DNA of 64,000 bases from Heterodontus francisci. Taxonomy: Eukaryota. The notes under the pieces were generated by a model, which was not told the origin of the DNA, made no database searches, and saw nothing but the letters and a program-made list of their open reading frames with translations. The first letter of the stretch is position 1; each line of letters opens with the position of its first letter. A program made the translations under genes and the position numbers. The stretch covers positions 22,410,084-22,474,083 of the forward strand of contig NC_090407.1 of NCBI RefSeq assembly GCF_036365525.1, given 5' to 3'. Positions 15,601 to 18,600 of the stretch are shown here, one piece after another.

Positions 15601-18600
15601 ACATGTCGCCTATTTTCTAAGGGTCTGTATCTCTTTGCTTCCTGCCCATTCATGTATCTGTCTAGATACATCTTAAAAGACGCTATCGTGCCCGCGTCTA
15701 TCACCTCCGCTGGCAACGCATTCCAGGCACTCACCACCCTCTGCGTAAAGAACTTTCCACGCATATCCCCCCTAAACTTTTCCCTGCTCACTTTGAACTT
15801 GTGACCCCTAGTAATTGAATCCCCCACTCTGGGAAAAAGCTTCTTGCTATCCACCCTGTCTATACCTCTCATGATTTTGTACACCTCCATCAGGTCCCCC
15901 CTCAACCTCCGTCTTTCTAATGAAAATAATCCTAATCTGCTCAACCTTTCTTCATAGCTAGCGCCCTCCATACCAGGCAACATCCTGGTGAACCTCCTCT
16001 GCACCCTCTCCAAAGCATCTACATCCTTTTGGTAATATGGCGACCAGAACTGCACGCAGTGTTCCAAATGTGGCCGAACCAAAGTCTTATACAACTGTAA
16101 CATGACCTGCCAACCCTTGTACTCAATACCCCGTCCGATGAAGGAAAGCATGCCGTATGCCTTCTTGACCACTCTATTGACCTGCGTTGCCACCTTCAGG
16201 GAACAATGGACCTGAACACCCAAATCTCTCTGTACATCAATTTTCCCCAGGACTTTTCCATTTACTGTATAGTTCACTTTTGAATTGGATCTTCCAAAAT
16301 GCATCACCTCGCATTTGCCCTGATTGAACTCCATCTGCCATTTCTCTGCCCAACTCTCCAGTCTATCTATATTCTGCTGTATTCTCTGACAGTCCCCTTC
16401 ACTATCTGCTACTCCACCAATCTTAGTGTCGTCTGCAAACTTGCTAATCAGACCACCTATACTTTCCTCCAAATCATTTATGTATATCACAAACAACAGT
16501 GGTCCCAGCACGGATCCCTGTGGAACACCACTGGTCACACGTCTCCATTTTGAGAAACTCCCTTCCACTGCGACTCTCCATCTCCTGTTGCCCAGCCAGT
16601 TCTTTATCCATCTAGCTAGTACACCCTGGACCCCATGCGACTTCACTTTCTCCATCAGCCTACCATGGGGAACCTTATCAAACGCCTTAGTGAAGTCCAT
16701 GTATATGACATCTACAGCCCTTCCCTCATCAATCAACTTTGTCACTTCCTCAAAGAATTCTATTAAGTTGGTAAGACATGACCTTCCCTGCACAAAACCA
16801 TGTTGCCTATCACTGATAAGCCCATTTTCTTCCAAATGGGAATAGATCCTATCCCTCAGTATCTTCTCCAGCAGCTTCCCTACCACTGAAGTCAGGCTCA
16901 CCGGTCTATAATTACCTGGATTATCCCTGCTACCCTTCTTAAACAAGGATACAACATTAGCAATTCTCCAGTCCTCCGGGACCTCACCCGTGTTTAAGGA
17001 TGCTGCAAAGATATCTGTTAAGGCCCCAGCTATTTCCTCTCTCGCTTCCCTCAGTAACCTGGGATAGATCCCATCCGGACCTGGGGACTTGTCCACCTTA
17101 ATGCCCTTTAGAATACCCAACACTTCCTCCCTCCTTATGCCGACTTGACCTAGAGTAATCAAACATTTGTCCCTAACCTCAACATCCGTCATGTCCCTCT
17201 CCTCGGTGAATACTGATGCAAAGTACTCGTTTAGAATCTCACCCATTTTCTCTGACTCCACGCATAACTTTCCTCCTTTGTCCTTGAGTGGGCCAATGCT
17301 TTCTCTAGTTAAATGAAAAGGAAGAATGTGCAGGGTTACGGGGAGAAGGCAGGGGAATGGAACAGTGGGAGTTGCTCTTTCAGAGAGCTGGTGTGGACAT
17401 GATGTGAGCGAGATGTTTAAGATCATGAACAGTCTAGATAGAGTTGAGTATCATATGTTGAACACTGCAGGATAAAAACGTCTGGCTGTGCTATCTTGGT
17501 TCCATATGTGATCATTAATTCCAGAGGTTGAAAACTGGGACTTTGCGACAAAATCTTGAACAATAAAAGCTAACTCAGGGTTTCCAGGTCATGTAGCAAT
17601 TCTTTCTTTCATTGTGAAGACTCAGCTGATGTGGCAAGTGGGGTTTGAGTGGAATCCAAGTTTCTAACCTGCAGTTTGGAACTCATTCCTGTGATTAGCA
17701 AAGTGTGACGAGCAGATTTGTTGAATTGTTGATCAGTTTGAGGCATTGCGTTAGCTGCTGTAGAGTAGCACAAGATAGATAATTTGCTCCTCAGTTGCTT
17801 TCTGTGATACAGCTGTAACGTTTTATGACCTGTTGCTTTATGACTTGTCATTTTACATTTGATTTTAGCACCCATTCCCATTTAGTTATACAATGGCCAG
17901 AAAGCTGGAGTTGACATTGTGTTTATTGGTGATGTATGTGAGAGGATACTGCTTGGTAGCGTATTGCCACCGGTGCTTTGCAAAATAAATTATACATGTG
18001 CCGATATTCTTTAAAGCTGTCTGCCACTCTAAATTCTTCACCATAAGTTAGTACCATTGGCACCAATGTTGTACCCTAATTAGAAGCTTCAATTACATCC
18101 CACATTTAGAAGAACAAAACCTAGAATTGAGTTGCTGGAGATTTCTTACCATTCAGGAGCCACATGCCTGCTGTTAAGCTTCCTTGAAATCATGTTATTA
18201 ACAGTGGGATGGGAATGTTACACGTGCTGTGAAGGTTTATGCTGCATGTTCAACTCTTAAATGCTGCTTTCTTTGCTCATGCTGCTGTGGAACCAGCTGC
18301 ACAAGGTAACATGTTTAATTCACAAATTTGTTGTTCCTTTGTCTTTTGGAAGGCGCAAACATGTTTTCAACATGTCCATTAAGGTGGAAAATTTCCTTTG
18401 GTTATGTATGTGTTGTTCGAGGACTGAACTGGGATCCCAGACATCAGTTTGGTTCATGTTCAACTTATAAAATGAGAGATCTACCAGCTTTAACTGTTGG
18501 CTGATTACAGAGTGTCACATTGTGTGTGTTAGAATCTCTTGAACAAAGAACAAAGATAATTACAGCACAGGAACAGGCCCTTCGGCCCTCCAAGCCTGCG

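Follow-up and report, generated by a model that had tools for sequence, protein, structure and literature searches.

The question raised by this locus is whether nine nucleotides lying deep in a long intron of EMC1, in the shark Heterodontus francisci, are an exon, in which cells such an exon would be used, and what the three residues that it adds would mean for the protein.

EMC1 and the nine nucleotides of intron 12

The window, that is, the whole stretch of 64,000 nucleotides analyzed here, contains EMC1 as a model of 22 coding exons (574 to 34015), whose skip product of 961 amino acids is identical to the RefSeq protein XP_067873380.1 of this species at 961/961 positions. The initial annotation had placed a 9-nt microexon in the 9.4-kb intron 12; this intron is 9,380 nt long and in phase 1, and all the letters given for the unit are present in it. 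The frame proposed at the time, phase 1 on both sides with EFGKKADG becoming EFGKKAAAQDG upon inclusion, is confirmed by the exon model. The features are as follows, those from 18243 to 18311 being read from the sequence:

11982..12098, + strand: EMC1 coding exon 12, ending in ...EFGKKA plus G (phase 1), with RNA-like contigs in which its 3' end is connected to exon 13
18243..18248, + strand: TGCATG, RBFOX-type hexamer, occurring once in intron 12 and lying 54 nt before the microexon
18254..18294, + strand: putative branch-point/pyrimidine region holding five UGC motifs (-35, -32, -23, -17 and -14)
18295..18296, + strand: 3' splice-site AG of the microexon
18297..18305, + strand: 9-nt microexon CTGCACAAG, phase 1/1, inserting Ala-Ala-Gln; the same insert is found in elasmobranch X1 isoforms
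18306..18311, + strand: 5' splice site GTAACA (AAG/GTAACA)
21479..21678, + strand: EMC1 coding exon 13, beginning with AT (completing Asp) and coding for the brace/crossbar helix

The splice unit, AG/CTGCACAAG/GTAACA, has the properties of the microexon class, namely a cassette of 3-27 nt with AG/GT sites that preserves the frame. The five UGC motifs expected just upstream of the AG were found, with TGC starting at 18262, 18265, 18274, 18280, and 18283, and they are preceded by ctcttaa at 18254-18260, in which lies one CTCT (at 18254), of the kind looked for as an upstream pyrimidine element. Five TGC within 35 nt is the arrangement looked for in SRRM3/4 targets; the other acceptors of the EMC1 exon model carry 0-4 in 40 nt. 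Intron 12 holds 161 units of the type AG-(3n, 3-27 nt)-GTR, and the microexon is the only one (1/161) with at least three TGC in the 40 nt upstream. Among introns generated by a first-order Markov model, 7/1000 had any unit with at least five TGC, a threshold that was picked after the site had been seen. On both strands of the window, the microexon is alone among AG..GT units in coding for AAQ (0.004 expected per intron). The AG-free zone before it measures 61 nt, a length equaled or exceeded at 4/19 constitutive acceptors checked, and the 271-nt region around it has one match in the genome. Local RNA structure at the microexon does not rise above that of shuffled sequences (z 0.04). An alternative splice-site extension was rejected as the source of AAQ, given that lengthening exon 12 or 13 by 9 nt would yield GTVY or VLPD.

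RBFOX typically represses from sites upstream of an exon and activates from downstream sites. The TGCATG reported at 18243 is indeed there, yet it gives no support for activation, because it lies upstream of the microexon, where RBFOX usually represses.

The intron is also rich in mobile-element sequence. Two direct-repeat LINE pieces of 1.8 kb, 96% identical to each other, lie on both sides of the microexon (15519-17311 and 18541-20333), which would thus be lost if the two recombined; a further copy, inverted and about 66% identical, is found at about 13790-15040. On the minus strand of 18622-21432, a stop-free frame of 937 codons contains domains of an endonuclease (PF03372/PF14529) and of a reverse transcriptase (PF00078); it represents a young element resembling LINE ORF2, which begins about 240 nt downstream of the microexon.

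The insert in vertebrates and its neural regulation

Among 203 EMC1 proteins, the junction reads KKA-DG in 158 and bears a three-residue insert in 16 (9 AIQ, 4 AAQ, 3 AVQ), the remainder being made up of 2 with other inserts and 27 off-pattern proteins (mostly fragments, one of them a goby protein that shows AIQ). Of the 23 chondrichthyan species represented, three have the AAQ insert: the sharks Chiloscyllium plagiosum (XP_043531790.1) and Scyliorhinus canicula (XP_038677639.1), and a skate, Amblyraja radiata (XP_032904150.1). Their X1 isoforms carry AAQ after EFGKKA, as here, and differ from their X2 isoforms in nothing else. Unlike these three elasmobranchs, H. francisci appears in the skip form only among all 15 members of the cluster listing, and none of 13 Callorhinchus proteins is an AAQ isoform. 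In 7/8 aligned vertebrate isoform pairs, AAQ (the three elasmobranchs) or AIQ (Polypterus, Tachysurus, and two birds) is the sole difference, while the eighth, from Erpetoichthys, has GRIY at the slot. At the protein level, AIQ or AVQ is found in lungfish, bichir, teleost, birds, and mammals. The initial annotation mentioned AIQ-type inserts in bony vertebrates and proposed conservation to the base of the jawed vertebrates; both points have held, the latter through the AAQ of RefSeq isoforms from sharks and skate and the AIQ/AVQ of bony vertebrates. Since the insert is common to sharks, skate, and bony vertebrates, the exon dates to the jawed-vertebrate ancestor, and its conservation across jawed vertebrates is supported by these alignments. 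The idea that annotation had missed it applies, as far as the proteins compared show, to the present species but not to the whole group, for the microexon is already annotated in elasmobranch relatives and the exon itself is already known.

The inserts GKPPL, GNRQ, and the GRIY of Erpetoichthys were not counted as the microexon, because they start with Gly, as donor read-through would. Database models of EMC1 with any of these three look like donor read-through replacing a missed microexon.

Tissue data come from published catalogs. Zebrafish emc1 DreEX0029850 (9 nt) has PSI values of 77.8 in neural tissue, 74.0 in endocrine pancreas, 4.5 in liver, and 3.2 in muscle; eMIC mutants give it a dPSI of -61.9, and its listed human counterpart is HsaEX0022280, also of 9 nt, with a neural dPSI of 77.4 (PMC12626424, in part). 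The human exon passes from a PSI of 0.47 with GFP to 99.3 with SRRM4 (PMC7935315, in part). Mouse MmuEX0008514, again of 9 nt, is binned as an ordinary 'ASE' and not as eMIC-dependent (PMC8797185). EMC1 is one of 13 selected neural microexons conserved between human and chicken, with its function given as 'unknown' (PMC12871342, in part). UGC motifs between branch point and AG are present in about 74-79% of targets, and SRRM4 responses are conserved from shark to mammals according to the available part of 10.1101/2024.09.17.613571, whose main text, within that part, does not name EMC1. Likewise, emc1 was not found in the accessible main text of PMC12626420 or in 12 of its 13 supplements.

The look-up of an orthologous EMC1 microexon that the initial annotation had suggested is answered by these 9-nt VastDB ids in published tables (PMC7935315, PMC12626424, PMC8797185). 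We infer that the AIQ exon is what the human, zebrafish, and mouse catalogs record, as their entries agree with the shark exon in gene and 9-nt length, AIQ stands at the slot in bony-vertebrate isoform pairs, and the insert is the sole difference in the seven pairs mentioned. The shark exon is very likely the same as the one listed for human and zebrafish as nerve-specific and dependent on SRRM3/4, although it codes for AAQ where bony vertebrates have AIQ/AVQ, and although tissue pattern and SRRM dependence were measured in those two species while the shark exon is known from its letters. The proposed neural SRRM3/4 type is borne out insofar as the 9-nt exon of human and zebrafish is neural and SRRM4/eMIC-dependent, yet it is not neural only (PSI 74 in zebrafish endocrine pancreas). 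This genome has two SRRM_C matches, one 91% identical to skate SRRM4 and the other presumably SRRM3. That SRRM3/4 would switch on the insert in neurons and islet cells is, by analogy, highly probable, and inclusion is to be expected in this species as well.

In RNA of this shark, 23 runs matched intron 12, with word shares of 0.12-0.39, and the contigs of 8 were placed on 21300-23300 (exons 13-14). Exon 13 is covered in 6/8 runs (2/8 lack cover), and all six join the end of exon 12 straight to exon 13, which is the skip form; their exon pieces have 0-1 differences, and exon 13 is spliced to exon 14 at GT..AG. No inclusion junction was found in these six covering runs, whose tissues are unstated and whose contigs drop minor forms, so that this is no evidence of absence. 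At 23086-23300, low-depth contigs in five of the covering runs pass from exon 14 into intron 14, reflecting either intron retention or pre-mRNA/DNA.

Inserts at the same position in invertebrates

Drosophila EMC1 (CG2943) has a 21-nt microexon, head-enriched by RT-PCR and named ME335 in the text and ME355 in the table (PMC8042270, in part); the same coordinates correspond to DmeEX0001409, eMIC-dependent and pan-neuronal (PMC8797185 Table S2). In phase 1 the exon reads GG-DFTSFE-A. The sole difference within each of four Drosophila X1/X2 pairs is DFTSFER, which follows ESEMKGKAG, and this preceding stretch aligns without gaps to EGEFGKKAD of the shark at the same codon and in the same phase. 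DmeEX0001409 shares with the shark exon the codon position, phase 1, and the regulator family, with gap-free alignment on both sides, but it is 21 nt long and its DFTSFER has no sequence likeness to AAQ/AIQ, which leaves room for common ancestry or independent gain. Fly and vertebrate exons would in this way be eMIC-dependent at one position, the dependence in fly and in human/zebrafish coming from published tables and the vertebrate slot identity being the one deduced above.

Isoform pairs of other invertebrates, all of them gene models compared at the protein level, include slot inserts in the bug Rhynocoris (+7), the damselfly Hetaerina (+6), the nemertean Lineus (+5, DHGST), and the brachiopod Lingula (+4, AVIS); the isoform clusters of Manduca, Haemonchus, Schistosoma, and Branchiostoma have no slot insert. 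Altogether, 5/9 invertebrate lineages with comparable pairs have one, or 3/7 without fly and damselfly, which were chosen for their inserts. According to codon logic, those of Lingula and Lineus could also derive from an alternative acceptor, while that of Rhynocoris could not. In Hetaerina americana, the linker at the slot is about 14 residues longer than in other insects in both isoforms, in addition to the optional 6, possibly reflecting two tandem small exons.

A study of 2022 named four same-position eMIC exons of fly and mouse (spg, EndoB, unc-13, and unc-104), EMC1 not among them, and favored convergence (PMC8797185). The omission of EMC1 would be explained by the 'ASE' bin of the mouse Emc1 9-nt exon. 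The fly-vertebrate correspondence at the EMC1 slot is stated nowhere in the literature searched, outside of which stand Torres-Mendez 2019, Irimia 2014, VastDB, and several supplements that may note cross-phylum or shark conservation. As the exon is catalogued already, its recognition in a further shark does no more than close a gap in annotation; the new part is the presence of Drosophila and protostome exons or inserts at the slot of the vertebrate EMC1 microexon.

The hinge before the brace helix

The alignment of exon 13 with human EMC1 begins at G479, and the slot falls between human A477 and D478, flanked by brace-interface residues: F473 on one side and M483, R487, and Q491 on the other. 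In the alignment-based AlphaFold models (pLDDT about 88 overall; TM 0.91 for the inclusion model vs 6ww7_A), the slot lies in a loop of five residues that connects helix 432-442 with the long amphipathic brace helix 448-478. Upon inclusion, a short extra helix is predicted at 443-448 with a pLDDT of about 57-64, too low to interpret, and the rest of the fold is unchanged. The linker at the slot varies in length among aligned eukaryote EMC1 proteins. Regarding the neighboring residues, TMEM97 is reduced in the EMC1 mutants F473Y+R487K and M483A+R487H+Q491N, while B1AR is unaffected (PMC7785296, in part). Binding of CaV1.2 is accompanied by a lift and a shift of the brace, of about 6 and 10 Å, with contact through the C-terminal end of the brace (10.1101/2022.10.03.510667, in part); this counts against the functional step, because the end touched is not that of the insert. 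In the available part of PMC12317982, brace mutants destabilized EMC or left model-client binding unchanged, and clear evidence of client engagement is not reported there.

The best explanation, held with great confidence, is that the nine nucleotides are the shark copy of a conserved EMC1 microexon. The RNA contigs examined show it skipped; neurons and endocrine cells probably include it via SRRM3/SRRM4, and AAQ is predicted to fine-tune client chaperoning by EMC, a membrane-protein chaperone of the ER. SRRM3/SRRM4 would act on the upstream UGC cluster so that neurons and endocrine/islet cells include the microexon; Ala-Ala-Gln would then lengthen the hinge before the brace helix by three residues; and the longer hinge would slightly change brace position or mobility and thereby alter the handling of membrane-protein clients. 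For this last step the case is evenly balanced. A fortuitous AG/9-nt/GT look-alike, for which the 161 units of this long intron would speak, was already disfavored and can be considered extremely improbable, as the unit is the sole one with at least three upstream TGC and the sole one coding for the AAQ of three other elasmobranch gene models. It is also very unlikely that the exon persists in the DNA of this species as a remnant no longer spliced in: the six covering runs with skip junctions only, the skip-only RefSeq entry, and the 96%-identical 1.8-kb LINE pieces on either side, one about 240 nt downstream, would agree with such a loss, but splice sites, frame, AAQ codons, and all five UGCs are intact, the genome has an SRRM4-like locus, and non-neural tissue together with bubble-collapsed contigs would yield skip-only evidence.

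A weightier alternative accepts the exon as real and neurally regulated and takes the insert as near-neutral, a tolerated lengthening of the linker kept by splicing architecture and not by EMC function. This has an appreciable chance, though below even, of being right. It is consistent with the natural variation of linker length among eukaryotes, with inserts that change in length and sequence between phyla, with a predicted fold that stays the same save for the low-confidence local helix, and with single microexon deletions in zebrafish, whose effects are mostly mild as reported in the available parts of the sources (main texts in which, to that extent, emc1 is unnamed). On the contrary, the retention of length and of the A-x-Q sequence from skates to mammals argues against it, as does the importance of adjacent residues for client handling (PMC7785296, in part).

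Under the preferred reading, the insert lies in the hinge at the N-terminal end of the brace helix, a mobile part of EMC1 whose mutants affect clients selectively, and the 'unknown' function of the EMC1 microexon thereby becomes testable with existing EMC client reporters. Mini-exons of fly and vertebrates at one spot may mark an ancient tuning site. A more far-reaching proposal, offered tentatively and on balance doubtful, is that a neuron-specific microexon has been present in EMC1 intron 12 from the bilaterian ancestor onward, with the brace hinge lengthened by 3 residues in vertebrates, 4 in the brachiopod, 5 in the nemertean, 6 in the damselfly, and 7 in bug and flies, and that throughout Bilateria the neurons have an EMC of their own, tuned to ion channels, GPCRs, and rhodopsins. 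If true, EMC1 would join the four cases of 2022 as a fifth eMIC exon shared in position by fly and vertebrates, one that might truly go back to a common ancestor. The shared slot bears on the question of whether any neural microexons come from the bilaterian ancestor or were gained repeatedly at hotspots.
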